A stretch of DNA of 64,000 nt, taken from NCBI GenBank assembly GCA_900542005.1, contig UQLW01000011.1, positions 6,099-70,098 on the forward strand, written 5' to 3'. Both the position numbers and the translations under genes were made by a program. The notes beneath the pieces were generated by a model that was not told the origin of the DNA, made no database searches, and saw only the letters and a program-made list of their open reading frames with translations. The DNA comes from an uncultured Eubacteriales bacterium. GTDB lineage: Bacteria; Bacillota; Clostridia; Christensenellales; UMGS416. Positions 46,879-64,000 of this stretch are shown piece after piece (within the stretch, counting starts at the first letter, position 1; each line of letters begins with the position of its first letter).

Positions 46879-46882
46879 AAAA

Positions 46883-47293
46883 ATGAACGTACTGGAGAAA
46901 ACCCGCGAGCTGGGCGAGGCTCTTTACAATTCACCGGAGTATCAGGCCGTCAAGGAGGCCCAGGCGGTGATGGAGGCCGACGAAACGGCTTCCCACATCC
47001 TCAAGGAGCTTTCCGAGCTGGAGGCGGATATCCGGCTGACCATGGAAAAGCCGGAGATGAGCGAGCTCTTCCTCAAGAGCAAGATGGACCGCTACCAGAA
47101 GCTGCAGAAGACGGCCGGCGAGAATCCGCTGATCCAGCAGTACCAGGAGGCGGGCAACACCTTCCAGCAGCTGATGGGCCAGGTGAATTCCATTATCAGC
47201 TATTTTCTGACCGGAGAAACCCCCGACGAAGCGGGCGGCTGCGATGGAAACTGCGCCGGGGGCTGCGCAGGCTGCACGGGCTGCAGCCACTAG
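46883..47293 (+). CDS. YlbF/YmcA (RicA/RicF) family protein with a Cys-rich C-terminal tail
   Basis: 136 aa from MNVLEKTRELGEALYNSPEYQ. Conserved position between miaB and mutS, as for B. subtilis ymcA. Tail GGCDGNCAGGCAGCTGCSH. Confidence 0.8.
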   Translation: MNVLEKTRELGEALYNSPEYQAVKEAQAVMEADETASHILKELSELEADIRLTMEKPEMSELFLKSKMDRYQKLQKTAGENPLIQQYQEAGNTFQQLMGQVNSIISYFLTGETPDEAGGCDGNCAGGCAGCTGCSH

Positions 47294-47320
47294 GACCCCA
47301 AGCGGGAGAGAGAGGATAGG

Positions 47321-49957: not shown

Positions 49958-51966
49958 TGGTTCAGGAGAACGCCCGCATCCATGTATTGGCCGATGAGGT
50001 GGCCCGCCAGATTGCGGCGGGCGAGGTGGTAGAGCGCCCCAGCGCCGTAGTGAAGGAGCTGGTGGAAAACGCGCTGGACGCGGGAAGCACGCTCATCACC
50101 GTGGAGATCCAGGACGGCGGCAAAAAGGGGATCCGCGTAAGCGACAACGGCTGCGGCATTGCCCGGGAGGACGTGCCCCTGGCCTTTCAGCGTCATGCGA
50201 CCAGCAAAATCGCCACGCTGGAGGATCTATATCATATCAGCCATATGGGCTTCCGGGGTGAGGCGCTGTATTCGATTGCCGCTGTATCGCGGGTGGAGCT
50301 GACAACCAAGCGGCGCGGGGATGAAGCGGGGCTGCGGGTGACCAATGAGGGTGGCCAGCTGGGCGAAATAACCGACGCCGGCTGCCCGGACGGCACGACC
50401 CTATGGGTGCGGGACCTGTTTTATAATACCCCGGCCCGACTGAAGTTCCTGCGCTCAGCCCAGTCGGAGGCCGGTGCGGTGGGCAGCGTGATGAGCCGGC
50501 TGATCCTGGCCAATCCGTCGGTTTCTTTCCGGTTTATCTCCCATGGCAAGACGGTTTACCATTCCCAGGGGGACGGCAGCCTGCGCAACGCCGTCTATTC
50601 GGTGCTGGGTAAGGAGATTGCCTCCCACATGGTGACGGTGCAGGGAGAGGAAGGCGGGATCCGCGTGGAGGGCTGCGTTGGAGAGCCCGTGGTCAGCCGG
50701 GGCAACCGTACCTATGAGATGCTGTATGTCAATGGCAGGCCGGTCAACCACCCCATGGTCTCCAAGGCGGTGGAGAACGCCTACGGCACCACGCTGATGT
50801 CGCAGAAATTCCCCGTATTCGTACTGAACCTGTCCATGCCCTACGAGTGGGTGGACGTGAACGTGCATCCCAACAAGCTGCAGGTGCGCTTTGCCCAGGA
50901 CCAGCAGGTGTTTTACGCCGTGCAGTCCTGTGTGCGGCGGGCCTTGAGCGGCGTGGAGCAGAAGCCCACGGTGATGCAGTTTAAGGCGGCGGTTATCCCC
51001 TGCGAGCCGGAGCAGAGGGACAAGCCCGCCCAGGATGCGCCTGAAAGGCAGAAGACGCCGGTTTCCCCGGCAGGGTTGCCACAGCCCGAAGGGGCAGCGC
51101 CGCTGGCCCAGAGCTCCCCAAGCAGCCCGTCGCATCCCCAAGGGGCAGCGGCGCTGGCCCAGAAGCCCCAAAGCAGCCCGCCGCAGCCAAGGGAGAAGCC
51201 GCTGCCGCCGCCAGCATCCATGCAGCAGGCTGTGCGGGAATACCGCTCCCAGGTGATCGGAGAGAACCAGGAGGCCTTCGCCTATACCCGGCTGCTGCAG
51301 AAGGCCGAACCCAAGCCCACGCTGGCCAGCGAGCAGGCGCTGCCCTGGAAGGAGCCACAGCAGGAGCAAACCCAGGTGGAGAGCCTGCGGCTGCCGGAGG
51401 GCACGCTCCGGGGCGTAGTTTTCCATACCTATGCCATCATTGAGGCGGGGGATGAGCTATACTTTGTGGATCAGCATGCGGCCCATGAGCGGCTTTTATA
51501 CGACCAGTATATGCAGGCCCTTGAGACGGGGGAGAGCTTCTCCCAGCAGCTGCTGGTGCCTCAGATGCTGGAGGTGACCTATTACCAGAAGACAGCCATC
51601 GAGGAAAATATGGAGCTCTTCGCCCAGCTGGGCTTTGAGCTGGAGCCCTTTGGGCGCAACAGCTACCAGATCCGCGCGGTGCCGCACTTCCTGGGCCAGG
51701 CCCAGCAGAGCGGGTTCTTCCTGGAGGTTCTGGATATGCTCCACAGCCAAACGGGCAACACCCGGGACGAACGGCAGCGCGCGATCATGCAGATGTCCTG
51801 CAAGGGCGCAGTAAAAGGGGGCGAGCCGCTTTCCCAGCAGGAGATGGACCGGCTGCTGGAGGTGCTTCGCCGGGAGGATACGCCGCTTTCCTGCCCCCAT
51901 GGCCGCCCCATCTGCATGAAGCTGACCCGGCGGGAGCTGGAAAAGCAGTTCAAGAGGATCGTATGA
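49957..51966 (+). CDS. mutL: DNA mismatch repair protein MutL
   Basis: 669 aa. IAAGEVVERPSAVVKELVENALDAG GHKL ATPase N-terminus. C-terminal dimerisation domain. Pro/Gln/Ala-rich linker. Confidence 0.96.
   Translation: MVQENARIHVLADEVARQIAAGEVVERPSAVVKELVENALDAGSTLITVEIQDGGKKGIRVSDNGCGIAREDVPLAFQRHATSKIATLEDLYHISHMGFRGEALYSIAAVSRVELTTKRRGDEAGLRVTNEGGQLGEITDAGCPDGTTLWVRDLFYNTPARLKFLRSAQSEAGAVGSVMSRLILANPSVSFRFISHGKTVYHSQGDGSLRNAVYSVLGKEIASHMVTVQGEEGGIRVEGCVGEPVVSRGNRTYEMLYVNGRPVNHPMVSKAVENAYGTTLMSQKFPVFVLNLSMPYEWVDVNVHPNKLQVRFAQDQQVFYAVQSCVRRALSGVEQKPTVMQFKAAVIPCEPEQRDKPAQDAPERQKTPVSPAGLPQPEGAAPLAQSSPSSPSHPQGAAALAQKPQSSPPQPREKPLPPPASMQQAVREYRSQVIGENQEAFAYTRLLQKAEPKPTLASEQALPWKEPQQEQTQVESLRLPEGTLRGVVFHTYAIIEAGDELYFVDQHAAHERLLYDQYMQALETGESFSQQLLVPQMLEVTYYQKTAIEENMELFAQLGFELEPFGRNSYQIRAVPHFLGQAQQSGFFLEVLDMLHSQTGNTRDERQRAIMQMSCKGAVKGGEPLSQQEMDRLLEVLRREDTPLSCPHGRPICMKLTRRELEKQFKRIV
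51085..51186 (+). repeat. Imperfect 51-nt tandem duplication inside the MutL linker
   Basis: Two adjacent 51-nt units with about 8 mismatches by eye, encoding PEGAAPLAQSSPSSPSH / PQGAAALAQKPQSSPPQ. Confidence 0.7.
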
Positions 51967-52931
51967 TGGGGACGAGATTGATCTGCATCGTAGGCCCTAC
52001 CGCCTCCGGCAAGAGCGCCCTGGCTGTCGCGCTGGCCCGCACGCTGGATGGCGAGGTGATCTCAGCGGATTCCATGCAGGTATATCGCGGCATGGATATC
52101 GGCACGGCGAAGATCACCAGGCAGGAGATGGGGGGCGTCGTTCATCATGGCCTGGATCTCTTGGAGCCGCAGGATCGCTATAACGCCTTCTATTTCCAGG
52201 ACTTTGCGCGCCGCAGCATCTCCGGGGTGGCGGAACGGGGGAAAACCCCGATCCTATGCGGCGGTACGGGCCTGTTTGTCCACAGCGTGCTGTTTGCGAT
52301 GGCCTTCACCGAGGCGGGAGAGGATCAGGCCCTGCGGGCGCAGCTGGCCCGGGAAGCCAGGGAAAGGGGGCCGGAAGCCCTGCATCAGCGGCTGCAGGCG
52401 GTCGATCCCGCCAGCGCAGCGCGTATCCATCCCAACAACGTGAAACGGGTAATCCGGGCCCTGGAGGTGTATGCGCTGACGGGTAAGCCGATGAGCAGCT
52501 TTGATGAAGGGGCTTTCGCTGAGCCTGAACCCCTCTACCGGCCGCTGCTGTGGCTGGGTTTGGAGCTTCCCCGGGAGGAGCTGATTCGGCGCATCGACAG
52601 GCGGGTGGACGCCATGATAGCGGCTGGCCTGGAGCAGGAAGCCCGGCGGCTGTGGGAGCAGGGGCTTCGGCCCGAGACGCACACGGCCCTGCAGGGGATC
52701 GGCTATAAGCAATTCGCGCCCTATTTTGCAGGAGAGGCGACGCTGGAGCAGGCCGTGGAGCGGATCAAGATTGAGACACGGCAATTTGCCAAGCGGCAGA
52801 TGAGCTGGTTCAAGCGGGAAAAGCGGATTCGCTGGCTGGACGCTTCCCAGGATATCCGCGAGCTGGCATCCCAGGCGCTGGTATTGTGGGAAGAAGAGCG
52901 GAAGAAGATGGAATGGATGGGAGAAAGATGA
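51963..52931 (+). CDS. miaA: tRNA dimethylallyltransferase
   Basis: 322 aa. IVGPTASGKSALAV P-loop, SADSMQVYRGMDIGTAK. ATGA overlap with mutL. Confidence 0.95.
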   Translation: MMGTRLICIVGPTASGKSALAVALARTLDGEVISADSMQVYRGMDIGTAKITRQEMGGVVHHGLDLLEPQDRYNAFYFQDFARRSISGVAERGKTPILCGGTGLFVHSVLFAMAFTEAGEDQALRAQLAREARERGPEALHQRLQAVDPASAARIHPNNVKRVIRALEVYALTGKPMSSFDEGAFAEPEPLYRPLLWLGLELPREELIRRIDRRVDAMIAAGLEQEARRLWEQGLRPETHTALQGIGYKQFAPYFAGEATLEQAVERIKIETRQFAKRQMSWFKREKRIRWLDASQDIRELASQALVLWEEERKKMEWMGER

Positions 52932-54190
52932 TCAATCATTTGACCGGCATCGCGCCGGAGGCGATTTTGGAAGTGCAGCGGGCAGAGCAGGCATTGATCC
53001 ATGGGGGCGTATTCGCCCGCATGGAGGAGACGGCCCTGACAAACCAGATGAAGGTGATGGAAGCGCTGCAGGAGAACCGGGTGGAAATGCGCCATTTTGC
53101 TTCCAGCACGGGATACGGGTATGACGACATTGGGCGGGATACGCTGGATCGCGTCTATGCCCGGGCCTTTGGGGCGGAGGCGGCCTTGGTGCGCCCGCAG
53201 ATGATCAACGGCACCCATGCGCTGGCACTGGCGCTTTATGGTGTGCTGCGCCCGGGCGATGTGATTTTGAGCGTGACGGGCAAGCCCTACGATACCCTGG
53301 AGGAGGTGATCGGCCTCTCGGGCGAAGCGGATCAGGGCTCGCTGAAGGATTTTGGCATCCGCTATGAGCAGCTGGAGCTGGGCGATGGCGGCGCTATCGA
53401 CCTGAAGGGGCTTGAGGCGAGGCTGGAGGCCGGCCCCGTGCGCATGGTTTACCTGCAGCGGTCCAAGGGATATGACTGGCGGCCCACCATGAGCATGGAG
53501 CAGCTGTCCCAGGTGACGGAGCTTGTACACCGGGTTCAGCCGAAGGCCCTGGTGATGGTGGACAATTGCTACGGCGAATTCGTGGAGGACAGGGAGCCCA
53601 CTGAGGTTGGGGCCAATCTGATGGCCGGCTCGCTGATTAAAAATCCGGGGGGCGGCCTGGCGCCAACCGGCGGATATGTGGCCGGCGACGAAGCGCTGAT
53701 TGCCAAGGTCGCATGCCGCCTGACCACGCCGGGCATCGGGGCCGAGGCAGGCTCCTATGCCGGCGGGTATCAGTACCTTTTCCAGGGCTTCTTCCTGGCG
53801 CCCCATGTGGTGCTGCAGAGCCTGAAAACAGCGGCGCTGATGGCCTATGTGCTCAAGGCCCGGGGATATGATACGATCCCCGCCTGGGATGAACCCAGGT
53901 ATGACATTATCCAGGCGGTGCGGCTGGGGGCGAAGGAAAACCTGGAAGCCTTCTGCCGTGCAATCCAGGCGGCTTCGCCGGTGGACGGCCATGTGGTGCC
54001 GGAGCCCTGGCCGATGCCTGGATATCAGCACGACGTGATTATGGCGGCGGGCACCTTTGTGCAGGGCGCGTCCATTGAGCTTTCAGCCGACGGCCCGATC
54101 AAGCCGCCCTATATCGGTTATATGCAGGGCGCGCTGACCTACGAACATGGCAAACTGGCCGTGATGCGGGTGTTGACCGCGCTGAAATAG
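52928..54190 (+). CDS. YnbB/aluminium-resistance-type PLP-dependent (Cys/Met metabolism) family protein
   Basis: 420 aa from MINHLTGIAPE. STGYGYDDIGRD and GSLIKNPGGGLAPTGGY are characteristic of this family. ATGA overlap with miaA. Confidence 0.8.
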   Translation: MINHLTGIAPEAILEVQRAEQALIHGGVFARMEETALTNQMKVMEALQENRVEMRHFASSTGYGYDDIGRDTLDRVYARAFGAEAALVRPQMINGTHALALALYGVLRPGDVILSVTGKPYDTLEEVIGLSGEADQGSLKDFGIRYEQLELGDGGAIDLKGLEARLEAGPVRMVYLQRSKGYDWRPTMSMEQLSQVTELVHRVQPKALVMVDNCYGEFVEDREPTEVGANLMAGSLIKNPGGGLAPTGGYVAGDEALIAKVACRLTTPGIGAEAGSYAGGYQYLFQGFFLAPHVVLQSLKTAALMAYVLKARGYDTIPAWDEPRYDIIQAVRLGAKENLEAFCRAIQAASPVDGHVVPEPWPMPGYQHDVIMAAGTFVQGASIELSADGPIKPPYIGYMQGALTYEHGKLAVMRVLTALK

Positions 54191-54211
54191 AGCTGAAAAG
54201 CGGACAAAAAG

Positions 54212-54248
54212 AAAGGCTCCTTCAATCATGCCGATTGAAGGAGCCTTT
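54212..54248. terminator. Bidirectional rho-independent terminator
   Basis: AAAGGCTCCTTCAATC-ATGCC-GATTGAAGGAGCCTTT. Strong T-run on the minus strand. Confidence 0.85.
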
Positions 54249-54260
54249 TGCCTTGCAGCC

Positions 54261-54503
54261 TTATCCTAACCGCTCCAGGATCTGCTGCTGAAAGAATTCG
54301 TCGGTCTTTTCCGGGGTGAGGGAATGCAGCTCGCCGTCCACCGTGGTACATACGCCTTCCTGGCAGTGTCCGGTGCAGAAGGTAGCGGCCAGGTCGACCT
54401 TGTCCTGCAGCTGATGCTCAGCGATGAGGGCCTGAAGCCGTTCAACAATTTTCTGGGAACCTCTTAGGTGGCAGGAGCTGCCAATGCATACGGTAACTTT
54501 CAT
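54261..54503 (-). CDS. Thioredoxin-like [2Fe-2S] ferredoxin (NuoE/HndA-type fold)
   Basis: 80 aa from MKVTVCIGSSCHLRGS. Cys pattern C-x4-C ... C-x3-C. Start chosen at the internal ATG with GGAAGAGG upstream. Confidence 0.7.
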   Translation of the reverse strand: MKVTVCIGSSCHLRGSQKIVERLQALIAEHQLQDKVDLAATFCTGHCQEGVCTTVDGELHSLTPEKTDEFFQQQILERLG

Positions 54504-54534
54504 TTTGATGACCTCTTCCACGATTGCCATGCAA

Positions 54535-55173
54535 TCAATTTTCGATGAGTTTGTCGTTGAGACGCTTGGCCAGCACGGCCAGGGAGCAGGCGATGTTCTC
54601 ATAGCGGACCAACACGCCCTCGGGCACGTTGAGATGGACGGGAGCGAAATTCCAGATGGCGAGGATCCCGCTTTCCACCATTTGATCGCACACCTGCTGG
54701 GCGGCGTCAGCGGGGACGGTTATGATGCCGATACGGATTTTCATCCGCTGGCAAAGATCCCTCATCCTGTCGAAGGATAATACAGGCTTGCCTGCAATCC
54801 TTGTGCCGATTAAGGATGCGTCCACATCAAAGGCGGCGACAAGCTCCAATCCATATTCTGAAAAACCACCGTAGGAAAACAGCGCGCGGCCCAGATTTCC
54901 GGCGCCGGCTACAATCGCGCTGCGGGTATCGTTGTAGCCCATGAATTCTTCAATATCGGCGATCAGGCGCTTTGTGACATAACCGATCTTGGGCCGGCCG
55001 CCGGAGCTGACCTGGGCGAGATCCTTCCGTACCTGGACATCATTCAATCCCAACGCCTCGGCAATGGCGGTGGCCGAGATGTTCTCGGAGCCGCCCTCGG
55101 GCAAAGAGCGCAGGTAGTTGAGATAGAGCGGAATACGGTGTAATGTCTGCGTCGAAATGGATTGGAGTTTCAT
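54535..55173 (-). CDS. rex: Redox-sensing transcriptional repressor Rex
   Basis: 212 aa. RIPLYLNYLRSL, ISATAIAEALGLNDVQVRKDL winged helix, and GAGNLGRAL Rossmann motif. Confidence 0.93.
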   Translation of the reverse strand: MKLQSISTQTLHRIPLYLNYLRSLPEGGSENISATAIAEALGLNDVQVRKDLAQVSSGGRPKIGYVTKRLIADIEEFMGYNDTRSAIVAGAGNLGRALFSYGGFSEYGLELVAAFDVDASLIGTRIAGKPVLSFDRMRDLCQRMKIRIGIITVPADAAQQVCDQMVESGILAIWNFAPVHLNVPEGVLVRYENIACSLAVLAKRLNDKLIEN

Positions 55174-55183
55174 GCGTTACACC

Positions 55184-55471
55184 CTATTTCGCAGCAGCCT
55201 GCTGGGCCTCGTATTTCTTGTTGCGGAAGTAGAGGCAGATATCGGTCGCAACCATGATGATATTGGGGAAATAGAACCAGAAAGCCAGATTAAAGGTATG
55301 GGAGAGGAACTTGGAGCCCAGGCCGCAGATATAGCCAAAGAAAATGAAAAGCATAAAGGGCAGGCTCTTTCCCTGGGTAGACTTGGAGCGGACCGATTTA
55401 ATGATGGAGAGGGGCCAGGATACGCCGAAGCTGATGATCATCAGGGTTTCCAGAATGCTAGCTAATTCCAT
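55184..55471 (-). CDS. Small 3-TM membrane protein, PQ-loop/SemiSWEET-like
   Basis: 95 aa with three hydrophobic helices. SFGVSWPLSIIKSVRSKSTQGKS resembles the PQ-loop motif region. Good codon bias, but no Shine-Dalgarno directly upstream. Confidence 0.5.
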   Translation of the reverse strand: MELASILETLMIISFGVSWPLSIIKSVRSKSTQGKSLPFMLFIFFGYICGLGSKFLSHTFNLAFWFYFPNIIMVATDICLYFRNKKYEAQQAAAK

Positions 55472-55545
55472 AATCCAACGCGGCGCGGGCGAAGGACGCC
55501 CGCCGCCGCATCCTCCTTCTTTCTTCGTATTGCTGTAGGTTTGGT

Positions 55546-57153
55546 TTAGATGGTATCGCCGTGACGGGTGTAGTTGGGCAGAAGCTTGGGCGAGACGGCA
55601 TCGCTGTGGATGCCGGCGGCATCGAGCTCGTCATGGAAACGCTGCACATGCTCCAGGGTGAGCTGGCCCACGGTAACATCCTTGGACTTGACGGCGGCGT
55701 TACGGCCGGCGTTACGGCCAAAGACGATGATATCCAGCAGGGAGTTGCCCATCAGGCGGTTGCGGCCATGAATGCCGCCAACGGCCTCGCCAGCCACAAA
55801 GAGATTCTCCACGGTGGTCGTCATGCAGTCGGGGGTGATGTCCAGGCCGCCGTTTTGATAGTGAAGCGTGGGATAGACGAGGATGGGCTCGTAGCGGATA
55901 TCGATGCCATACTTGGCAAACATGCGGTGCATGGCCGGAATACGGGCCATGATGGTACCTTCGCCGCCGATTTTCTCAATCATCGGGGTATCCAGCCACA
56001 CCGCACAGCCGCTGCCGGTATCCAGGCCCTTGCTGCGGCTGGTGCATTCGCGGATGATGGAGGCAGCCGCAACGTCCCGGGTTTCCAGCGGATGCATGAA
56101 GACCTCGCCTTCGGCGTTCACCAGCTTGGCGCCCAGAGAACGGACCTTCTCCGTAACCAGCGCGCCGAAGATCTGCTCAGGATAGGCGGCGCCGGTGGGA
56201 TGGTACTGCAGGGTATCGGCATAGAGCAGCTTGGCTCCCACCCGATAGCCCAGCACAAGGCCGTCGGCGGTGGCTCCATAGTGGTTGGAGGTCGGGAAGC
56301 CCTGATAATGCATCCGGCCAGCGCCGCCGGTGGCAATGATTACGGTCTTGGCCCGGGCGACAAGCAGCTCACGGGTTTCCATGTTCATCAGCACCGCGCC
56401 GGAGGCATTGCCCTTTTCGTCAAGGATGAGCTCGATGGCGGCGGTGAAATCGACCACCGGGATCCCACGGTTGAGCACCTCGTCCCGCAGCGTCCGCATG
56501 ATCTCGGCCCCGGAGTAGTCCTTGGCCGCGTGCATACGCTTGCGGGAGGTGCCGCCGCCATGGGTGGTGACCATGGTGCCATCGGGCGTTTTGTCGAACT
56601 CAACGCCCAGATCGTTCAGCCACTGGATGGCTTCCGGCGCCTCGGTGACGAGCTTATAGAGAAGATCTCGCTTGGCTGCGAAGTGGCCCCCGCCAAAGGC
56701 GTCAAGGAAATGGATGGCGGGGGAGTCGTTGGGCTTATCAGCAGCCTGGATACCGCCCTCGGCCATCATGGTATTGGCATCGCCAATGCGCAGCTTGGTC
56801 ACGATCATGACGTTGGCACCGGCGTTATCCGCCTCGATAGCCGCAGAGGAACCTGCGCCGCCGCCGCCGATCACCAGCACATCCACGTCATAATCCGGAT
56901 GGGCGAGGTCGATCTCATCGGGATTGATTCGGCTGCGGGCCTGAAGCATTTCCGCCAGCTCATGGGGCACCTGCTCGCCCTGGTTGGGGCCGACCTGCAG
57001 GGCTTCAAATTCCTCTTTCTTATAGTCGGGATGATAGGCGGCAAGCAGGTCTTCCTTTTCCTTTGCCGTCATACGGGCCGGCTCATAGGCAATGTTCGCC
57101 TCGCGGGCCGCCTCCACCCTGCGGAGGGACTCGGTAAATTTTTCGGAATACAT
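55546..57153 (-). CDS. Soluble fumarate reductase/succinate dehydrogenase/L-aspartate oxidase-superfamily flavoprotein
   Basis: 535 aa. FAD motif VLVIGGGGAGSSAA starts near residue 92. QYHPTG, EKVRSLG, TLHYQNGG and GRNRLMGNSLLD align with FrdA/SdhA active-site motifs. AGGAGG RBS. Confidence 0.8.
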   Translation of the reverse strand: MYSEKFTESLRRVEAAREANIAYEPARMTAKEKEDLLAAYHPDYKKEEFEALQVGPNQGEQVPHELAEMLQARSRINPDEIDLAHPDYDVDVLVIGGGGAGSSAAIEADNAGANVMIVTKLRIGDANTMMAEGGIQAADKPNDSPAIHFLDAFGGGHFAAKRDLLYKLVTEAPEAIQWLNDLGVEFDKTPDGTMVTTHGGGTSRKRMHAAKDYSGAEIMRTLRDEVLNRGIPVVDFTAAIELILDEKGNASGAVLMNMETRELLVARAKTVIIATGGAGRMHYQGFPTSNHYGATADGLVLGYRVGAKLLYADTLQYHPTGAAYPEQIFGALVTEKVRSLGAKLVNAEGEVFMHPLETRDVAAASIIRECTSRSKGLDTGSGCAVWLDTPMIEKIGGEGTIMARIPAMHRMFAKYGIDIRYEPILVYPTLHYQNGGLDITPDCMTTTVENLFVAGEAVGGIHGRNRLMGNSLLDIIVFGRNAGRNAAVKSKDVTVGQLTLEHVQRFHDELDAAGIHSDAVSPKLLPNYTRHGDTI

Positions 57154-57164
57154 AGAAGGCCTCC

Positions 57165-57839
57165 TTATTTCTCAATTTCGCGGTGGTTATAAAGCTCCTG
57201 CATTTCCTCCACCGGCTTGCCCATCAGCGCCTCGAGAAGCTCGGTAAAGGTACCGTCGTGGATCTCCTGCACACGGTCGGCCAGATGCTGGCTCTTGGGA
57301 GCCAGATACTTTCCGTTCAGGCGGCGCGCAAGCATGGCGACCTGGGGATGGGAGATGCCGGCGGGACACCGGGAGGAGCAGATGCCGCACATGACGCAGT
57401 CAAAGGAAGCCTCGGCGCATTTTTCATATTCGCCGCGCTGGGCATAGGCGATATACTGCATGACGTTCAGGCCCTGCGGGCAGACCTTGGTGCAGGCGTT
57501 GCAGCCGATACAGCTGTAGATTTCCGGATAAAGCTGCATCATAATCTGCTCGGTAGGGGCAACCTTCTCCATGTCGTACACCTGCTTGACCAGGGGGAAG
57601 AAGGGGAGGGTCGCCACATACATATTGTCCTCCACCTTGGTCTGGCAGGCCAGGCACGCCTTTAGCTCGCGGTCGCCCTTGATGCGGTAAATCGTGGCAC
57701 AGGCGCCGCAGAAGCCGTTCCGGCAGCCGCAGCCGCGGATCAGCTGGTAGCCGGCGTATTCCATCGCGCCCATGATCGTCAGGTTCGACGGGACGGAATA
57801 TTTCTTGCCCATCAGAAAGACATTCACCATATTTTCCAT
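57165..57839 (-). CDS. FrdB/SdhB-like iron-sulfur subunit (2Fe-2S plus two Cys4-type cluster motifs)
   Basis: About 224 aa from MENMVNV (AGAGAGGA RBS). CGCRNGFCGAC...C, CIGCNACTKVCP, CVMCGICSSRCP. Confidence 0.8.
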   Translation of the reverse strand: MENMVNVFLMGKKYSVPSNLTIMGAMEYAGYQLIRGCGCRNGFCGACATIYRIKGDRELKACLACQTKVEDNMYVATLPFFPLVKQVYDMEKVAPTEQIMMQLYPEIYSCIGCNACTKVCPQGLNVMQYIAYAQRGEYEKCAEASFDCVMCGICSSRCPAGISHPQVAMLARRLNGKYLAPKSQHLADRVQEIHDGTFTELLEALMGKPVEEMQELYNHREIEK

Positions 57840-57859
57840 CTTCAGATCCTCTCTTACGA

Positions 57860-58696
57860 TCAATATTCGTTGGGCAGCTCGTCAAGCTCGTCACAGCGGA
57901 AGACGGGCCCATCCTTGCAGACATACTTGGAGCCGATGTTGCACCGGCCGCACTTGCCGACGCCGCACTTCATCTTCAGCTCCATGGTGGTGAACACCTG
58001 GGTTTTATCGAAGCCCAGCTCCTGCAGAGAGGCCAGGGTGAACTTAATCATAATGGGCGGGCCGCAGAGCAGAACCGTCTTATCCACAGCGAAGCAAAGC
58101 TCCTTCACATAGCTGGGGACAAAGCCCACATGGCCGTCCCAGCCTTCCTGCTCGCGGTCGATGGTCAGGTATACGTTGACATTCTCCGCCGTGGACCATT
58201 CCTTGCGGATCTCCTCAATATCGACAAGATCATCGGCGGAACGGGCGCCATAGACGATGTCCACCTTGCCATAGTTATCGCGGTTGTGCAGCACATAGCG
58301 GATAACCGAGCGCAGCGGCGCCAGGCCAATGCCGCCGGCAATGAAGAGCAGGTCCTTCCCCTTCAGGTCCGTTTCCACGGGGAAGCCGTTGCCATAGGGG
58401 CCGCGGATGGTGATTTGCTGCCCCACATCCATCTGATGAAGCCAATCGGTCAGGCAGCCGCATTTTTTGATGCTGAATTCCATGTATTCCGTATCGGTAG
58501 GGGAGGAGGTGATGGAAAACATCGCCTCGCCTACGCCGGGTATGGACAGCATGGCACACTGGCCGGGGATATGCTTGAAGCATACGCCGCCCTCCAGCGC
58601 GTTGACCCGGAAGGTTTTGACGTCCGGCGTGTCCACCCGAACGTCGGTCACCACGCCCAGCTTCGGGATCAGCGTTTCGTTTTGCGCGCTATACAT
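57860..58696 (-). CDS. FAD/NAD(P)-binding oxidoreductase with C-terminal 2Fe-2S site (FlxA/AsrB/HydG-like)
   Basis: 278 aa. Ferredoxin-reductase-type FAD and NAD motifs (MFSITS, LLFIAGGIGLAPL). C-terminal CGVGKCGRC...C. Confidence 0.8.
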   Translation of the reverse strand: MYSAQNETLIPKLGVVTDVRVDTPDVKTFRVNALEGGVCFKHIPGQCAMLSIPGVGEAMFSITSSPTDTEYMEFSIKKCGCLTDWLHQMDVGQQITIRGPYGNGFPVETDLKGKDLLFIAGGIGLAPLRSVIRYVLHNRDNYGKVDIVYGARSADDLVDIEEIRKEWSTAENVNVYLTIDREQEGWDGHVGFVPSYVKELCFAVDKTVLLCGPPIMIKFTLASLQELGFDKTQVFTTMELKMKCGVGKCGRCNIGSKYVCKDGPVFRCDELDELPNEY

Positions 58697-59717
58697 CTTC
58701 TTTCACCCCCAAGGTCTTGATGACTTTGACAATATTCATGGAAATGGGGCACTTGTTCAGGCAGCGTCCGCAGCCTACGCAGGAATAAGCGCCATCGTTG
58801 TTGGCGGGGAAATAGACGAGCTTATGCATGAACCGCTGGCGGAAGCGCTCCAGCTGCGTGGTGCGCGGGTTGCCGTGGGCCATCTTGGTGAAGTCCGAGT
58901 ACATGCAGCTGTCCCAGCAGCGGAAGCGCTGAATCCCGTGACCGGTATCATAATCGCGGATATCGTAGCACTGGCAGGTGGGGCAGACAAAGGTGCAGGT
59001 ACCGCAGCCGATGCAGCTCTGGGAGAGCTCCTGCCACTTGGGCGAATCGAACAGCCGGGCGGTGGCCTCGCCGTCGAAGCCCTCCAGGCTCAAATCGTGC
59101 AGGGGGAGCTTCTCAAAGATCGCCTTAGCCTGGTCGAGGGCGGATGCAAGCTCGCCGTCCCCGGCGGGCTCAAAGAGCGCTGAAACCGCTTCCGTTAGGG
59201 CTGCGCCCTTATCCGTCAGGCTGTCCCAGTAGAGGAAGCCGCCGGTTTCCCAGGTAGCGATGTCGCCGGCAGGGTGCAGGGCATCGATGCCAAAGGCGCC
59301 GCAGAAGCAGCTTTCCTCCGGCTCGAAGCAGGCGCGGGTGATGACGGCGCCCTGCTCGCGGCGGGCGGCATAGTAGCTGTCCACGGGATCAGCCAGGAAC
59401 ACCCGGTCCAGGATATCGAAGCTGGCGGCGTCGCAGGCCCGTACGCCGAAGATGACGAAGGGCTGCGGCTCCGTGCGGGTATCCAGAATGGAAATCTGCT
59501 TGCCCTGGGTCTTAAAGGCCATCAGGTTTTCACTTTGAGGGAAGAAGAGATCCTTGGCGGATTTGACCGTGTTAAGGGCGTCAAGCCGCACCTTGGCTTC
59601 GGCAGACCAAAGGCCGTATTCCACCTGGCCGGCCTGCTCTACCGGCAGGTAGAGCGCACGTTCCCGGGAGAGGCCGGCAAAAAGCTCCGGCAGCCGTTCA
59701 ATGGCAAGCTTAAGCAT
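58689..59717 (-). CDS. 4Fe-4S dicluster protein, AsrA/HydB/FlxB-like
   Basis: About 342 aa from MLKLAIERL. CIGCGTCTFVCPTCQC and CVGCGRCLNKCP motifs. TAATG junction with the upstream gene. Confidence 0.75.
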   Translation of the reverse strand: MLKLAIERLPELFAGLSRERALYLPVEQAGQVEYGLWSAEAKVRLDALNTVKSAKDLFFPQSENLMAFKTQGKQISILDTRTEPQPFVIFGVRACDAASFDILDRVFLADPVDSYYAARREQGAVITRACFEPEESCFCGAFGIDALHPAGDIATWETGGFLYWDSLTDKGAALTEAVSALFEPAGDGELASALDQAKAIFEKLPLHDLSLEGFDGEATARLFDSPKWQELSQSCIGCGTCTFVCPTCQCYDIRDYDTGHGIQRFRCWDSCMYSDFTKMAHGNPRTTQLERFRQRFMHKLVYFPANNDGAYSCVGCGRCLNKCPISMNIVKVIKTLGVKEDV

Positions 59718-60703
59718 TATTTTCCCCCCTCCCTGTGCATGACGACGCTGGGTTCGACATCGTCGGTGGTGTAGTCGGTCAGCGGGCCCCGGGATTCGGT
59801 ATCGGCCCCGGCCTGATATTCCCCGTAGAATTCGTTGATATCCTTGATGAACTTGCGGTTGAGAAGGTGCAGCGGGATGTGCTGCGGGCATACCCTGGAG
59901 CATTCGCCGCAGTCGGTACAGCGCCCCGCCACATGGAAAGCCCGGATGATATGGAACATATTTTCTTCAAAGGTGTCGGTGTTGGCTTTGCTGGCTACGC
60001 CGGAGGCATCGTTGTCGAAGACGCACTTGACGCAGGAGCAGGCCGGGCACACATTGCGGCAGGCATTGCAGCGGATGCACTTGGAAAGCTCGCTACGCCA
60101 GAAGGAGAAACGCTCGTCGGGCGTCATTGCCTCCAGATCCTTGACCTGATCGAAGCGATCGGCCGGGGCTTCGGGCATGGGCTCGCCGGTGACGGCTAAA
60201 TCGTCATGGGTGGCAAACTCCTTGCTCTTGCAGCAGCGGCATTTTTCCAGCAGCACCTCGCTGCGGCCGATGGTCTTATCGCCATAGAGGGTATGGACGG
60301 TCAGCTGATCGCCATCCTCCTCGATGGACTCGATCCCCTTGGCGCCCAGCGCCCGGATCTTGTCAATATCCAGCATGCCGCGGCACTCCACGCCCAGCAC
60401 ATAGACGTTCTCCCGGCGTACGCGATGCTCCTTTACCAGCTGGTTCAGGCTGTAGGTATCGCAGGGCTTGAGCAGCGCCAGGATCCTGCCCTCCTTGGCC
60501 GATTGCTGGATAAGATACTTGCTCAGATTGCTTCCGCAGAAGCCGTCATAGACAAAATCTTCCAGATCGCCGGCCCCCTCGAAAACGGCCGGCGTGGGGT
60601 CGTAGAAGAACTCTCCGCGCTTCCAGCCGATCATCCGGTTACAGGTGCCGTCGGACAAAAGCTGCTTGGCCTTCTCGCTGATTATTCCAAAGATTCTTTG
60701 CAT
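59717..60703 (-). CDS. 4Fe-4S dicluster protein, FlxC-like
   Basis: 328 aa. CIRCNACRNVCPACSC and CTDCGECSRVCP motifs. Confidence 0.7.
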   Translation of the reverse strand: MQRIFGIISEKAKQLLSDGTCNRMIGWKRGEFFYDPTPAVFEGAGDLEDFVYDGFCGSNLSKYLIQQSAKEGRILALLKPCDTYSLNQLVKEHRVRRENVYVLGVECRGMLDIDKIRALGAKGIESIEEDGDQLTVHTLYGDKTIGRSEVLLEKCRCCKSKEFATHDDLAVTGEPMPEAPADRFDQVKDLEAMTPDERFSFWRSELSKCIRCNACRNVCPACSCVKCVFDNDASGVASKANTDTFEENMFHIIRAFHVAGRCTDCGECSRVCPQHIPLHLLNRKFIKDINEFYGEYQAGADTESRGPLTDYTTDDVEPSVVMHREGGK

Positions 60704-61137
60704 CTGAGATCCTCCAGCCTCTTATTTTCGCCGAGGGCCTGAATGGTTTGGGCGAATTCATTCATTGTCGTGGAGAATTTAACGCCCTCCGCGGCGGAGA
60801 TCCACTCCACGCGGGTACGCTCCCGCTCAATGCCCAGGTAGTCCAGCATACTAAACAGCAGCGTCATCCGGCGGCGGGCATAGTAGTTGCCCGTGGTATA
60901 GTGGCAGTCGCCAGGATGGCAGCCGGCGATGATGACGCCGTCGGCGCCCCGCTGAAAGGCGCGAAGCACAAAAAGCGGGTTTACCCGGCAGGAGCAGGGT
61001 ACGCGGATCACTTTAACCGTGGCGGGGTAGGAAAGGCGGCTGGTGCCGGCCAGATCCGCGCCCGCATAGCTGCACCAGTTGCAGCAAAAGGCGACGATCA
61101 GGGGCTTAAATTCTTTGTTTTGCGTTTCTAGCGACAT
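60682..61137 (-). CDS. MvhD/FlxD-like hydrogenase iron-sulfur (delta) subunit
   Basis: 151 aa. IVAFCCNWCSYAGADLAG and VPCSCRVNPLFVLRAFQRGADGVIIAGCHPGDCHY are the MvhD/FlpD signature. Confidence 0.88.
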   Translation of the reverse strand: MSLETQNKEFKPLIVAFCCNWCSYAGADLAGTSRLSYPATVKVIRVPCSCRVNPLFVLRAFQRGADGVIIAGCHPGDCHYTTGNYYARRRMTLLFSMLDYLGIERERTRVEWISAAEGVKFSTTMNEFAQTIQALGENKRLEDLRCKESLE

Positions 61138-63113
61138 ATCGCGTCCACCTCCGCCATGATCTGTTTGGTCGAGAAGCCCTTCAGGTCCATTGCGCCGGAG
61201 GGACAGGTTACCGTGCAGGCGCCGCAGCCCTGGCAGATGGCCGGATTGACCTGGGCCACACGGCGCACCTGCGTTTTACCGGCGATGCGGTACTCCTTCT
61301 CCACATAGCTGATGGCGCCATAGGGGCATACCTTTTCGCAGGCGGAGCAGCCGTTGCACAGCATCTCGTCGGAGCCGGCCACGCAGGGGTTGGACAGTAG
61401 CTTATCCTTGGACAACAGGCCGATCACCTTGCTGGCGGCGGCGGAGGCCTGGGCTACCGTCTCGGGGATATCCTTGGGGCCCTGGCACACGCCGGAGAGG
61501 AAGACGCCGGCGGTGGGGCTTTCCACCGGGCGAAGCTTGGGGTGGGCTTCGGTAAAGAAGTTATTGGTATCGATGCTGGCGGTCAGCATGGTGGCTAGGC
61601 CCTTGGCCGAAGGATCGGGCTCGATGGCGGCGGCCAGCACCACCATATCGGCGTCGATGACAATCTGCCGGTCAGCCAGCAGATCGGACCCCTGCACACG
61701 GAGCTTGCCGCCCTGGGGCGATACCTTGCCGACCATGCCCTTGATATAATCGACGTTGTATTCCTCCACCGCGCGGCGATAGAACTCGTCGAAGTTCTTG
61801 CCCGGCGTACGCACGTCAATATAGAAGACGTGCACGTTAACATCGGGATACTTTTCGCGTACCAGCATGGCGTGCTTAGCCGTATACATACAGCAGATCT
61901 TGGAGCAGTAGGGCTTGCCGCAGCCGGAGGTATCGCGGGAGCCGACGCACTGCACAAAGACGATCTCGTGGGGATGCGTGTTATCGGAGGGGCGCAGCAG
62001 CTGTCCCTTGGTGGGGCCGGCCGCGTTCATGATCCGCTCGAACTCCAGGCTGGTGACGACGTCGGGGCTCTGGGAATAGGCGAATTCATTGAAATTCTCC
62101 ATCGAAATGGGCTTAAAGCCTGTAGCTACCACGATCGCGCCGTACCGCTCTTCGACGATTTCATCCTTCTGGGTGAAGTCGATGGCCTTAGCCGAGCAGG
62201 TCTTTTCACACAGGCCGCATTTGCCGGTGCGGAACTTGATGCACTGCTCGCGGTCAATGACGGGCACGTTGGGGATGGCCTGGGCAAAGGGGATGTAGAT
62301 CGCCCCGCGGTTATTGAGGCCCATATTGAACTCGTCCTTGGCCTTGCGGGAAGGGCATTTCTTGGTACAGTCGCCGCAGCCGGTGCACAGGTCGGCGTTG
62401 ACGCTGCGGGCCTTTTTGCGGATGTTGACGGTAAAGTTCCCCACAAAGCCGGAGACAGATTCTACCTCGCTATAGGTATACAGATGAATCTTTTCATGGG
62501 CGGCGGCATCCACCATCTTGGGCGTCAGGATACAGGCCGCGCAGTCCAGGGTGGGGAAGGTTTTATCCAGCTGGGCCATCTTGCCGCCGATGGTGGGGGA
62601 TTTCTCCACGATGTCCACCTCATATCCGGCGTCGGCGATATCCAGGGCGGACTGGATGCCGGCGATGCCTCCGCCAATGACCAGGGCGCGCTTGACCACG
62701 CGGCTCTCCCCGGCGATCAGGGGCTGGTTCAGGTTCAGCTTGGCGATAGCCGTACGGGCCAGGATGATGGCCTTTTCCGTGGCCTCGGCCTTGTCCTTGT
62801 GGATCCATGAGCAGTGCTCGCGGATATTGGCGATTTCCACCATATAGGGGTTAAGCCCTGCGGCCTGCGCGGTTTTGCGGAAGGTGGCCTCATGCATACG
62901 GGGCGAGCAGGAGCACACCACTACGCCGGTCAGCCCATATTCCTTGATGGCGTTGCGGATGCGGGATTGACCGCCCTCTGAGCACATATATTGATAATCC
63001 GTAGCATAGACCACGCCAGGCTCGCTTTTGACGGCCTCGGCAACGGCGGCCACATCCACGGTCGCCGCGATATTGCTGCCGCACCAGCAAACAAAGACTC
63101 CGATTTTCTGCAC
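61128..63113 (-). CDS. hdrA: HdrA-like FAD- and FeS-containing heterodisulfide reductase subunit A
   Basis: 661 aa. VIGGGIAGIQSALDIADAG FAD motif, inserted and C-terminal ferredoxin motifs (CTGCGDCTKKCP, CNGCSACEKVCP, CQGCGACTVTCP), and an N-terminal Cys-rich domain. Confidence 0.9.
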   Translation of the reverse strand: MQKIGVFVCWCGSNIAATVDVAAVAEAVKSEPGVVYATDYQYMCSEGGQSRIRNAIKEYGLTGVVVCSCSPRMHEATFRKTAQAAGLNPYMVEIANIREHCSWIHKDKAEATEKAIILARTAIAKLNLNQPLIAGESRVVKRALVIGGGIAGIQSALDIADAGYEVDIVEKSPTIGGKMAQLDKTFPTLDCAACILTPKMVDAAAHEKIHLYTYSEVESVSGFVGNFTVNIRKKARSVNADLCTGCGDCTKKCPSRKAKDEFNMGLNNRGAIYIPFAQAIPNVPVIDREQCIKFRTGKCGLCEKTCSAKAIDFTQKDEIVEERYGAIVVATGFKPISMENFNEFAYSQSPDVVTSLEFERIMNAAGPTKGQLLRPSDNTHPHEIVFVQCVGSRDTSGCGKPYCSKICCMYTAKHAMLVREKYPDVNVHVFYIDVRTPGKNFDEFYRRAVEEYNVDYIKGMVGKVSPQGGKLRVQGSDLLADRQIVIDADMVVLAAAIEPDPSAKGLATMLTASIDTNNFFTEAHPKLRPVESPTAGVFLSGVCQGPKDIPETVAQASAAASKVIGLLSKDKLLSNPCVAGSDEMLCNGCSACEKVCPYGAISYVEKEYRIAGKTQVRRVAQVNPAICQGCGACTVTCPSGAMDLKGFSTKQIMAEVDAICR

Positions 63114-63139
63114 TTATTTCACTTCCATCCTTTTTGGCA

Positions 63140-63532
63140 TTATTTCTGGTACTTGCGCAGCGCGCTGGTGATCGCCTGCTGGGGAAGCTTGTCGTTGAGC
63201 AGGCCGGGGACGGCGTCAGGCTTCATATGGCTGGCGCCCTGCTGGCGGATGACCGCCACGCGAACCGCCTCGATAAGGCGGGCCGGCTCGACGCTGCGGG
63301 GGCAGCGCTCCACGCAAGCGAAGCAGGAGAGACAGTTCCACAGGCTTTTAGAGGCCATAAGGGCCTCGATATCGCCGCTTTCCACCATGGAGACAAACTT
63401 GTGGGGATGGATATCCATCTCATCGAAGGCCGGGCAGGCGCCGGAGCACTTGCCGCACTTCATGCATTTGCGGGTATTGACCCCGCTGATCCGGCGGATG
63501 GTTTCAGCCAGCTCTTGATCGGTTCCGTGCAC
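63140..63532 (-). CDS. hdrC: HdrC-like 4Fe-4S dicluster subunit
   Basis: 130 aa. CMKCGKCSGACP and CLSCFACVERCP. Confidence 0.8.
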   Translation of the reverse strand: MHGTDQELAETIRRISGVNTRKCMKCGKCSGACPAFDEMDIHPHKFVSMVESGDIEALMASKSLWNCLSCFACVERCPRSVEPARLIEAVRVAVIRQQGASHMKPDAVPGLLNDKLPQQAITSALRKYQK

Positions 63533-63548
63533 AGCAAATCCTCCTTTC

Positions 63549-64000
63549 CTATTTCACGCCCAGGGCCTCGGCCAGAAGCTCGGTAAAGTAATGGACCGGC
63601 AGCTTCTCTGCGGTGGCGTTGGCGTCGAGATTATACATGCAAAGCGGACAGGCGGTGATGAGGGCCTCCGCACCGGCATCCCTGGCCGACGCCATGATGG
63701 CGTTACATTTTTTCTGGACCAGGCCGTTGTTCTCCAGGGTGACGTAGCCGCCGCAGCATTCGTTACGGTAGGCATAGATCACAGGCTCAGCGCCCAGGGC
63801 CCGGATGAAATCCTCCATGATGGAGGGGTTTTCCGGATTGTCAAAGCCGAGCTCCTTGCTGGGGCGCAGCAGCAGGCAGCCATAATAGGCAGCGATCCTG
63901 CGGCCCTTCAGGGGATTGGCCACCTTCTTTTTTAGCCCGTCAAAGCCGACCACATCCCGCAGAAGCTCCAGATAATGGAGCACGCGCGTTTCGCCGGCAT
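63549..64000 (-). CDS. hdrB: HdrB-like CCG-domain subunit, 5-prime end outside the window
   Basis: The reading frame is open to the window edge. YYGCLLLRP, NECCGG and ACPLCMYNLD are CCG-domain motifs. Confidence 0.85.
   Translation of the reverse strand, partial: AGETRVLHYLELLRDVVGFDGLKKKVANPLKGRRIAAYYGCLLLRPSKELGFDNPENPSIMEDFIRALGAEPVIYAYRNECCGGYVTLENNGLVQKKCNAIMASARDAGAEALITACPLCMYNLDANATAEKLPVHYFTELLAEALGVK

Follow-up and report, generated by a model that had tools for sequence, protein, structure and literature searches.

A probable electron-bifurcating, Flx-Hdr-linked fumarate reductase operon from an uncultured gut bacterium related to Christensenellales

Positions 54261–64000 of the 64,000-nucleotide stretch of contig UQLW01000011.1 examined here (the window) carry 12 minus-strand open reading frames (ORFs) for Hdr- and Flx-type proteins, an FrdB/FrdA-like reductase pair, a small membrane protein, a Rex-family regulator, and a [2Fe-2S] ferredoxin (Table 1). 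The best explanation of these genes, in our judgment a probable one, is an operon for a fumarate reductase linked to an electron-bifurcating Flx-Hdr complex. A preliminary description of this DNA, whose coordinates agree with ours, had left the terminal reductase unassigned. The context of fumC, mdh, and permease genes described below assigns fumarate to it as the substrate and indicates that the enzyme is almost certainly a fumarate reductase.

The fumarate reductase pair and its operon

The window ends within hdrB. A public contig of the same genome (L285) that is 100.000% identical to window positions 45546–64000 over 18,455 bp runs 3.1 kb further and supplies the front of the operon. It contains full-length hdrB (260 aa, two CCG motifs) and, upstream of it, a class II fumarase (FumC) gene and an Ldh/Mdh-family dehydrogenase gene, with a near-consensus TTGACA-17-TATAAT promoter ahead of mdh-fumC. 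The family tests of the two enzymes were run on the copies in L001, a 96%-identical relative. The fumarase passed the FumC model TIGR00979 (741 bits against a cut-off of 665), and the dehydrogenase possesses, in its GIARKPG loop, the MDH-type arginine that marks specificity for malate over lactate. Read across these contigs, the predicted operon comprises 14 genes (mdh-fumC-hdrB-hdrC-hdrA-mvhD-flxC-flxB-flxA-frdB-frdA-transporter-rex-fdx), the last 12 of which are held by the window, and it is fairly likely to encode the reductive branch from oxaloacetate to succinate. Fumarate is the predicted substrate of the reductase because fumC lies directly upstream of hdrB, mdh usually stands before fumC, and a permease gene follows frdA in relatives.

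The catalytic set of FrdA is complete, as read from alignments to E. coli FrdA, M. smegmatis SdhA, and NadB and from family alignments: H318 (in HPTG), T334, E335, R338, R359, H431 (in HYQNGG), and R466. The histidine that binds FAD covalently in E. coli FrdA and M. smegmatis SdhA aligns with Asn127, and this asparagine is invariant across the clade described below. Dedicated fumarate reductases likewise have Asn at this site. Loss of the histidine in Sdh/Frd enzymes leaves fumarate reduction intact and abolishes succinate oxidation. Judged by this alignment, Asn127 fits an enzyme that would reduce fumarate and be unable to oxidize succinate. FrdA also possesses a conserved 88-aa N-terminal extension, and the usual C-terminal Sdh/Frd domain (Succ_DH_flav_C, PF02910) was not matched in the Pfam search. 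The fold of the AlphaFold model matches those of Frd/Sdh flavoproteins, with the N-terminal extension too poorly modelled to interpret. FrdB carries a single 2Fe-2S motif together with two complete CxxCxxCxxxCP motifs and is devoid of a CCG domain; its best NCBIfam match is the N-terminus of TfrB (45.8 bits). Membership of classical complex II was rejected, since the covalent-FAD histidine, the C-terminal domain, and anchor genes in the operon are all absent. With moderate confidence, we regard FrdAB as a soluble, quinone-independent fumarate reductase with non-covalently bound FAD.

The remaining genes of the core encode every part expected of a FlxABCD-HdrABC complex, namely an HdrA-type subunit, an HdrB with two CCG motifs, HdrC, FlxD/MvhD, FlxA, and the FeS proteins FlxB and FlxC. 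In the methanogen Hdr, the bifurcating flavin is carried by HdrA, and the HdrA of the window matches M. wolfeii HdrA (5odc_A) over its full length (E 1.9e-201). Full-length HdrB (the L001 copy) matches the methanogen HdrB 8rvv_B (E 1e-38), the two Cys motifs of each protein falling in register, and its top match among the family models is SdhE, at 153 bits far under the cut-off of 500. There is no curated Flx-specific model, and FlxABCD was assigned by architecture: the AsrB and HydG-like models match the FlxA-like protein, and the ShyB, HydB, and AsrA models match the FlxB-like protein under their cut-offs. The real start of flxB is the ATG at 59717, not the long-ORF start at 59903, and the 342-aa protein is the one called in L283–L285. 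No DsrC-like sequence was detected in the window with a DsrC query, a weak test that gave only matches with E >2.8, in line with the preliminary description; DsrC was likewise not found among the called genes of L283–L285.

Relatives of the operon were surveyed in a scan with one genome per species. Close relatives of FrdA occur in at least 589 genome stretches and in more than 500 species genomes, mostly from uncultured animal-gut Oscillospirales and Christensenellales, and the nearest is that of Candidatus Parachristensenella avicola (96%). Gene neighborhoods were compared in the 80 closest loci (L001–L080), with sub-counts over 54 or 74 loci. As far as the contigs reach, the nine-gene core hdrBCA-mvhD-flxCBA-frdBA is colinear and unbroken in all 80, and the same colinearity is seen in Clostridia that are more distant. 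Of 54 related loci, 53 have fumC next to hdrB and 47 include mdh. FrdA and FrdB are among the best-conserved proteins of the operon (79–88% in relatives). The idea that the Frd pair serves as the acceptor arm of the Flx-Hdr complex, put forward in the preliminary description, is supported by this co-conservation of frdBA with the hdr and flx genes; the lack of co-conservation that was named there as refuting was not seen.

The twelve genes in the window are tightly packed, as had been described. Gaps separate hdrB from hdrC (16 nt), hdrC from hdrA (26 nt), flxA from frdB (20 nt), and frdB from frdA (11 nt), and the junctions between them overlap: hdrA/mvhD by 10 nt, mvhD/flxC by 22 nt, flxC/flxB by 1 nt, and flxB/flxA by 8 nt. 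The gap between frdA and the gene for the PQ-loop-like protein (PQ) is the largest of the set at 74 nt; the other gaps span 10–31 nt, including those of 10 nt at PQ/rex and 31 nt at rex/fdx. The strong terminator reported at the end of the operon was recovered as well. Pfam and NCBIfam agreed with the earlier domain assignments of all 12 genes, the PQ-loop match falling just under its threshold. Of the families named beforehand, CCG (PF02754), PF02662, and PF00890 were matched, whereas Fer2_3 (PF13085) scored 19.5 bits on FrdB, short of its cut-off of 27.

Table 1. Features of the operon found in the window, in the order of transcription
Feature	Product	Coordinates	Strand	Evidence
hdrB	HdrB, C-terminal 150 codons only	63549..64000	-	PF02754, 43 bits; start ~331 nt past the window end
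hdrC	HdrC, 130 aa, 2x[4Fe-4S]	63140..63532	-	Fer4_8, Fer4_17; TIGR03290, 62.6 bits, under cut-off
hdrA	HdrA, 661 aa, FAD/FeS	61128..63113	-	HdrA2 model NF040770, 791 bits, positions 1-640
mvhD/flxD	MvhD/FlxD, 151 aa	60682..61137	-	PF02662, 186 bits; resembles MvhD-like tail of HdrA2
flxC	FlxC-like FeS protein, 328 aa	59717..60703	-	4Fe-4S dicluster domains; colinear in all relatives
flxB	FlxB-like FeS protein, 342 aa	58689..59717	-	Fer4_22, 107 bits; resembles AsrA/sulfhydrogenase beta
flxA	FlxA-like NAD(P)H-binding flavoprotein + 2Fe-2S, 278 aa	57860..58696	-	NAD_binding_1, FAD_binding_6, DHODB_Fe-S_bind
frdB	FrdB-like FeS subunit, 224 aa	57165..57839	-	Fer2_4, Fer2, Fer4 families
frdA	FrdA-like flavoprotein, 535 aa	55546..57153	-	PF00890, 234 bits
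GC-rich hairpin	In frdA-PQ gap	55480..55509	-	Fold -29.9 kcal/mol, z-score -1.8, without T run
PQ	PQ-loop-like membrane protein, 95 aa (85 aa from alternative start)	55184..55471	-	PF04193, 20.9 bits against cut-off of 22
rex	Rex, 212 aa, non-canonical subfamily	54535..55173	-	NF003994, 284 bits against cut-off of 130; PF06971 + PF02629
fdx	Thioredoxin-like [2Fe-2S] ferredoxin, 80 aa	54261..54503	-	PF01257, 34.6 bits
Intrinsic terminator		54212-54248	-	17-pair stem, 3-nt loop, T run; closes operon

Predicted electron path and competing explanations

We infer from these genes a physical complex that would work as follows. Malate dehydrogenase and class II fumarase would make fumarate, which FrdAB would reduce to succinate. 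FlxA would oxidize NADH and pass the electrons via FlxB, FlxC, and MvhD to the HdrA flavin, where the electron pair would be split. The downhill electron would run through HdrC, HdrB, and FrdB to the FAD of FrdA and on to fumarate, and the other would be pushed uphill onto ferredoxin. The net reaction would be 2 NADH + fumarate + oxidized ferredoxin → 2 NAD+ + succinate + reduced ferredoxin. The established potentials, about -320 mV for NADH and an E0' of about +30 mV for fumarate, leave ample drive to push one electron onto ferredoxin. The PQ-loop-like protein would probably export succinate or import a C4 dicarboxylate, and the Rex paralogue encoded in the operon would probably repress the promoter at low NADH/NAD+ via a non-canonical palindrome.

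Several observations weigh against this scheme. The likeness of FrdB to classical FrdB/SdhB is weak, and the AlphaFold model of FrdA is moderate (pLDDT, the predicted local distance difference test, 69.5; shallow alignment of 33 sequences). The frdA gene is parted from the last three genes (PQ, rex, and fdx) by a GC-rich hairpin. Lacking a T run and having a z-score of just -1.8, this hairpin was rejected as a terminator, and none was called there; it may be a weak attenuator or an RNA-stability element. In the literature searched, no biochemical demonstration of a Flx-Hdr-linked fumarate reductase was found for any organism. Two further points concern the partners of FrdAB: HdrB retains a complete disulfide-reductase-type site, and hdrCB-frdBA is present without an adjacent hdrA in Acidobacteriota, Planctomycetota, and others.

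The latter point comes from the wider clade of this FrdA form, which was defined by an exhaustive cluster-representative search and a second genome scan. The clade includes Archaea (Bathyarchaeia, Asgard archaea, and Thermoplasmata) and Bacteria (Chloroflexota, Acidobacteriota, Planctomycetota, Gemmatimonadota, Omnitrophota, Eisenbacteria, and Clostridia). Nearly everywhere in it (L081–L159), frdB-frdA adjoins hdrC-hdrB, often together with hdrA-mvhD. The flx genes are found mainly in Clostridia; a small number of other lineages gave partial matches of the flxA or flxC type. In one acidobacteriotal locus (L132), hdrC-hdrB-frdB-frdA stands alone amid unrelated genes. Because the module occurs without adjacent hdrA, bifurcation is not inherent to it. 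In Bathyarchaeia (L081), the genes of a 2-oxoacid:ferredoxin oxidoreductase lie directly upstream of hdrC-hdrB-frdB-frdA and would give the Frd module a ferredoxin consumer. The deep unit appears from these neighborhoods to be HdrCB-FrdBA, a split relative of the archaeal TfrAB. A broader proposal, for which we see the case as evenly balanced, is that hdrC-hdrB-frdB-frdA represents an ancient, distinct class of soluble fumarate reductase, shared by Bacteria and Archaea, in which the flavoprotein is extended at its N-terminus and has no covalent FAD and in which CCG and FeS partners replace a membrane anchor. It would plug into HdrA bifurcation, with fumarate as a new high-potential acceptor, and, in gut Clostridia, be fed by NADH through FlxABC-MvhD and controlled by a second Rex subfamily through the operator TATCGATA-N6-8-TATCGATA.

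The best-surviving alternative to bifurcation, though an unlikely one, is a plain NADH:fumarate oxidoreductase, in which the Hdr/Flx proteins would act as a wire, HdrA would be an ordinary flavoprotein, and ferredoxin would not be reduced. The overall reaction is strongly exergonic and coupling is unneeded, the Frd module is found without hdrA in several phyla, as described above, and no published assay was found in the literature searched. However, a relay of seven Hdr/Flx subunits, whose full-length HdrA is of the bifurcation type, would be costly for a simple NADH-dependent fumarate reductase. In addition, the abolition of succinate formation by H2 in Pseudoclostridium thermosuccinogenes points to ferredoxin involvement (PMC7282089), and genes of a ferredoxin-using oxidoreductase adjoin the module in Bathyarchaeia.

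The next alternative, also doubtful, concerns HdrB, whose two CCG motifs retain all ten Cys. The Cys residues of CCG motifs bind the heterodisulfide in methanogens. The disulfide-reductase-type site is complete, and a thiol/disulfide intermediate is therefore conceivable: Flx-HdrABC would bifurcate onto a disulfide (of a small thiol or of a DsrC-like protein encoded elsewhere), and the Frd pair would reoxidize the thiol at the CCG site, as the archaeal thiol:fumarate reductase does. It accords with such a two-step route that TfrB is a fusion of FrdB with a CCG domain, that TfrA and TfrB are the best NCBIfam matches of FrdA and FrdB, and that thiols or DsrC-like carriers have been named as options (PMC7282089, PMC11636981). 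With only one HdrB, however, the disulfide would be made and consumed at the same site, a redundant arrangement, and the weak DsrC query found no DsrC-like gene in the window or the operon. In type E Sdh and in MFR, moreover, CCG proteins serve for electron transfer or anchoring and nothing else, and it is the SdhE model that tops the HdrB matches.

A different substrate is improbable. The enzyme could resemble L-aspartate oxidase, with the lyase acting as an aspartase and the AAE-family permease as an aspartate carrier, or it could reduce another enoate. NadB models score nearly as high as Frd models on FrdA, FrdA has a Glu at the position of NadB Glu121, the lyase exceeds the cut-off of the aspartate ammonia-lyase subfamily (536 against 510 bits), and an aspartate:alanine antiporter belongs to the AAE family. 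The lyase nevertheless scores far higher as FumC (741 bits, an equivalog model) and is preceded by an MDH-type dehydrogenase. NadB has no FeS partner, and the NadB-type Glu is also present in a genuine succinate dehydrogenase, M. smegmatis Sdh1. Finally, P. thermosuccinogenes makes succinate by this route (PMC7282089). Reverse operation, in which succinate would be oxidized with reduced ferredoxin helping NAD+ reduction (confurcation), is very improbable: Hdr-type complexes are reversible in principle, but the covalent FAD link on which efficient succinate oxidation depends is missing from all members of the family, and succinate production is what the mdh/fumC/permease context and the physiology of the characterized relative indicate.

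If the Flx-Hdr-linked fumarate reductase is indeed bifurcating, fumarate would be added to the few compounds, crotonyl-CoA and the heterodisulfide among them, that drive the reduction of ferredoxin, and the energy gain from succinate formation in quinone-free fermenters would be explained. Hundreds of quinone-poor gut Clostridia would then form reduced ferredoxin alongside succinate as they ferment. Among the Oscillospirales and Christensenellales of animal guts, the operon is found very often. With close relatives in more than 500 species genomes, it may influence the flow of succinate and hydrogen through the gut. Flx-Hdr complexes would also gain a concrete acceptor in bacteria without DsrC, a question that, to our knowledge, has stood since their description in 2015.

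Accessory genes and a candidate Rex operator

The small PQ-loop-like protein encoded after frdA has two clear hydrophobic segments and a weaker one. Its true start is uncertain because gene callers place it 10 codons later, giving the 85-aa form. A PDB sequence search gave no match; its relatives are named PQ-loop proteins in some sources, and it is 77% identical to the hypothetical protein that ends the succinate operon of P. thermosuccinogenes. Among 74 related loci, the slot after frdA holds an AAE-family (Asp-Al_Ex) permease in 48 and the PQ-like protein in 23, almost never both, and one or the other fills it in 70. The AAE family includes a succinate exporter in addition to the aspartate:alanine antiporter. 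Because the permease and the PQ-like protein alternate in the same slot, the latter is probably the transporter of the pathway and may carry C4 dicarboxylates. The gap between frdA and the PQ gene also contains a possible 17-codon ORF (MRRRASFARAALDYGIS, window 55458–55512), which begins straight after a GGAGG, crosses the GC-rich hairpin, and stops just within the PQ gene.

The Rex of the operon is a genuine member of its family, as its match to NF003994 shows and as the preliminary description had stated. In contrast, the TTGTGAA-type box expected there is absent: a search for the canonical Rex box (TTGTGAA-N4-TTCACAA or the clostridial TTGTTAA-N4-TTAACAA; N4 and N6 spacings, up to three mismatches) gave no relevant match in the window or in L001. 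The wing of this Rex diverges from those of Rex proteins in the PDB (VSSGGRPKIGY versus FGGFGQQGYGY). The rex gene is present in 14 of the 74 loci and the 2Fe-2S ferredoxin gene in 11. Both are variable accessories, and the ferredoxin travels with rex.

Another palindrome, ATATCGrTA-N6-7-TAyCGATAT, is located 35–140 nt upstream of mdh in L285, L001, and related loci (14 besides L001). In short form it reads TATCGATA-N6-8-TATCGATA, and the copy at the operon promoter is ATATCGTTATTATAATATCGATAA. In L285 (positions 329–352, ~2.8 kb past window position 64000), ATATCGTTA-TTATAA-TATCGATAA overlaps the -10 box. The palindrome does not occur within the 64-kb window; the operon promoter lies past the window end. 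Across the related loci, the palindrome tends to occur where rex does: 12 have both, 28 have neither, three have the motif only, and two have rex only. Because the loci are akin to one another, these counts lack independence.

The exact palindrome was found at 120 sites in a genome-wide scan. Of these, 33 precede a Rex-family gene by 13–334 nt, and at another 16 a rex gene is located within 8 kb. Sites are also found upstream of adhE or iron alcohol dehydrogenase genes (11), mdh-fumC-hdr operons (about four), NfnA-like genes (four), and [FeFe]-hydrogenase-like genes (three), and the usual arrangement is palindrome-rex-adhE-2Fe2S ferredoxin-hydrogenase. The positions of the sites suggest that they form a Rex-type regulon. 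The Rex of the window is thus likely to belong to a second subfamily with its own candidate operator, and the palindrome would offer such an operator for the second Rex paralogue of Clostridia.

In many Clostridia (L177, L189, L193, L208, L241, and L280), rex and the gene of a thioredoxin-like 2Fe-2S ferredoxin lie on either side of adhE, and an [FeFe] hydrogenase follows them. The rex-fdx pair of the window looks like that module minus adhE and the hydrogenase, appended to a fumarate reductase operon. A near-identical palindrome (ATATCGATATCAAGATATCGATAT) was seen in Dyella, Rhodanobacter, and probably related Lysobacterales (L174, L191, L217, L223, L247, L248, and L265), where it adjoins a gene resembling, by eye, a LacI-type regulator. 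This is probably an unrelated operator that matches the search pattern by chance.

Downstream of the operon, a plus-strand housekeeping block (window 45546–54190; radical-SAM/TRAM, YlbF-like, mutS, mutL, miaA, and methionine gamma-lyase-family genes) converges on the terminator at 54212–54248, which also faces the convergent plus-strand gene ending at 54190. Long antisense ORFs (up to 543 aa; e.g., 55561–57192 on the plus strand) mirror the real genes and are expected because the DNA is about 60% GC. All the conservation seen is accounted for by the minus-strand genes.

Comparison with known systems

The closest known system is the succinate operon of P. thermosuccinogenes, in which seven genes encode an Flx-Hdr complex and two a fumarate reductase, beside genes for fumarate hydratase and for a hypothetical protein that, it was suggested, may transport succinate (PMC7282089). 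This organism makes succinate and co-regulates the operon, and added H2 abolishes succinate formation, an effect that the authors read as fitting ferredoxin coupling (PMC7282089). As cited in that paper, a 2019 preprint (Koendjbiharie & van Kranenburg) had proposed that the fumarate reductase of P. thermosuccinogenes couples succinate formation to ferredoxin reduction. We reached its locus (NIOI01000001.1) through a search with the small membrane protein of the window. All eleven of its genes (fumC-hdrB-hdrC-hdrA-mvhD-flxC-flxB-flxA-frdB-frdA-small membrane protein) are orthologous to and colinear with those of the window operon, 65–88% identical gene by gene, and the same or nearly the same in length. 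The window operon has mdh as an extra first gene and, as extra last ones, rex and the gene of the thioredoxin-like 2Fe-2S ferredoxin; its host is an uncultured, high-GC, gut Christensenellales-like bacterium rather than a thermophile. By gene order and identity, the window operon belongs to the kind proposed in 2019–2020, and its architecture is already in the literature. No paper with the phrase "bifurcating fumarate reductase" was found in the literature searched.

A similar proposal was made for tfrAB and flx-hdr in the reductive tricarboxylic acid (rTCA) cycle clusters of tubeworm symbionts (PMC6315080). The tfrAB and flxABCD-hdrABC genes of Endoriftia and Thioflavicoccus embody the same idea, NADH reducing fumarate and ferredoxin together (PMC6315080, PMC11636981). 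Their context is an autotrophic rTCA cycle with korABCD and aclAB. FlxABCD-HdrABC of Desulfovibrio vulgaris (Ramos et al. 2015) has the same seven protein types as the window. In contrast to D. vulgaris, the window operon has no DsrC or adh genes, is linked to mdh, fumC, and a soluble fumarate reductase, and is ordered with hdr first and then flx reversed.

The preliminary description cited archaeal TfrAB and the type E succinate dehydrogenases as precedents. Both are apt as resemblances, whereas membership of either family fails on score cut-offs or domain layout. TfrAB (Heim et al. 1998) is also soluble, lacks a quinone or membrane anchor, and consists of an Frd-type flavoprotein/FeS pair with an HdrB-type CCG domain, and its subunits are the nearest to FrdA and FrdB in NCBIfam, as mentioned above. 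We rejected TfrAB membership, since FrdA reaches only 327.6 bits on the TfrA model (NF004900; cut-off of 718; model positions 6–415 of 546 matched) and has no C-terminal domain, and FrdB has no CCG fusion. The window FrdA has the extra 88-aa N-terminus instead, and the CCG domain resides on a separate HdrB. The host is without coenzymes M and B (CoM and CoB), and the donor would be NADH via HdrA. Type E SQR and MFR (SdhABE) likewise have a CCG-domain protein partnering an Sdh/Frd flavoprotein and FeS pair. Unlike them, the window proteins score far under the cut-offs (500), have no quinone or membrane role, and are accompanied by HdrC and HdrA.

For the regulator, the nearest parallel is in C. 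thermocellum, which has a pair of Rex paralogues. The canonical site is bound by one of them, and for the other, Rex_1799, no motif is known (PMC8457756). In the literature searched, we found no motif for Rex_1799. Like the window Rex, Rex_1799 / Cthe_0422 is, by description, a Rex-family protein far from the characterized Rex. Relatives of the window Rex are found in rex-adhE-2Fe2S-hydrogenase clusters, which is also the layout of Cthe_0422–0430. In the window, by comparison with Cthe_0422, rex is found at the end of a fumarate reductase operon.

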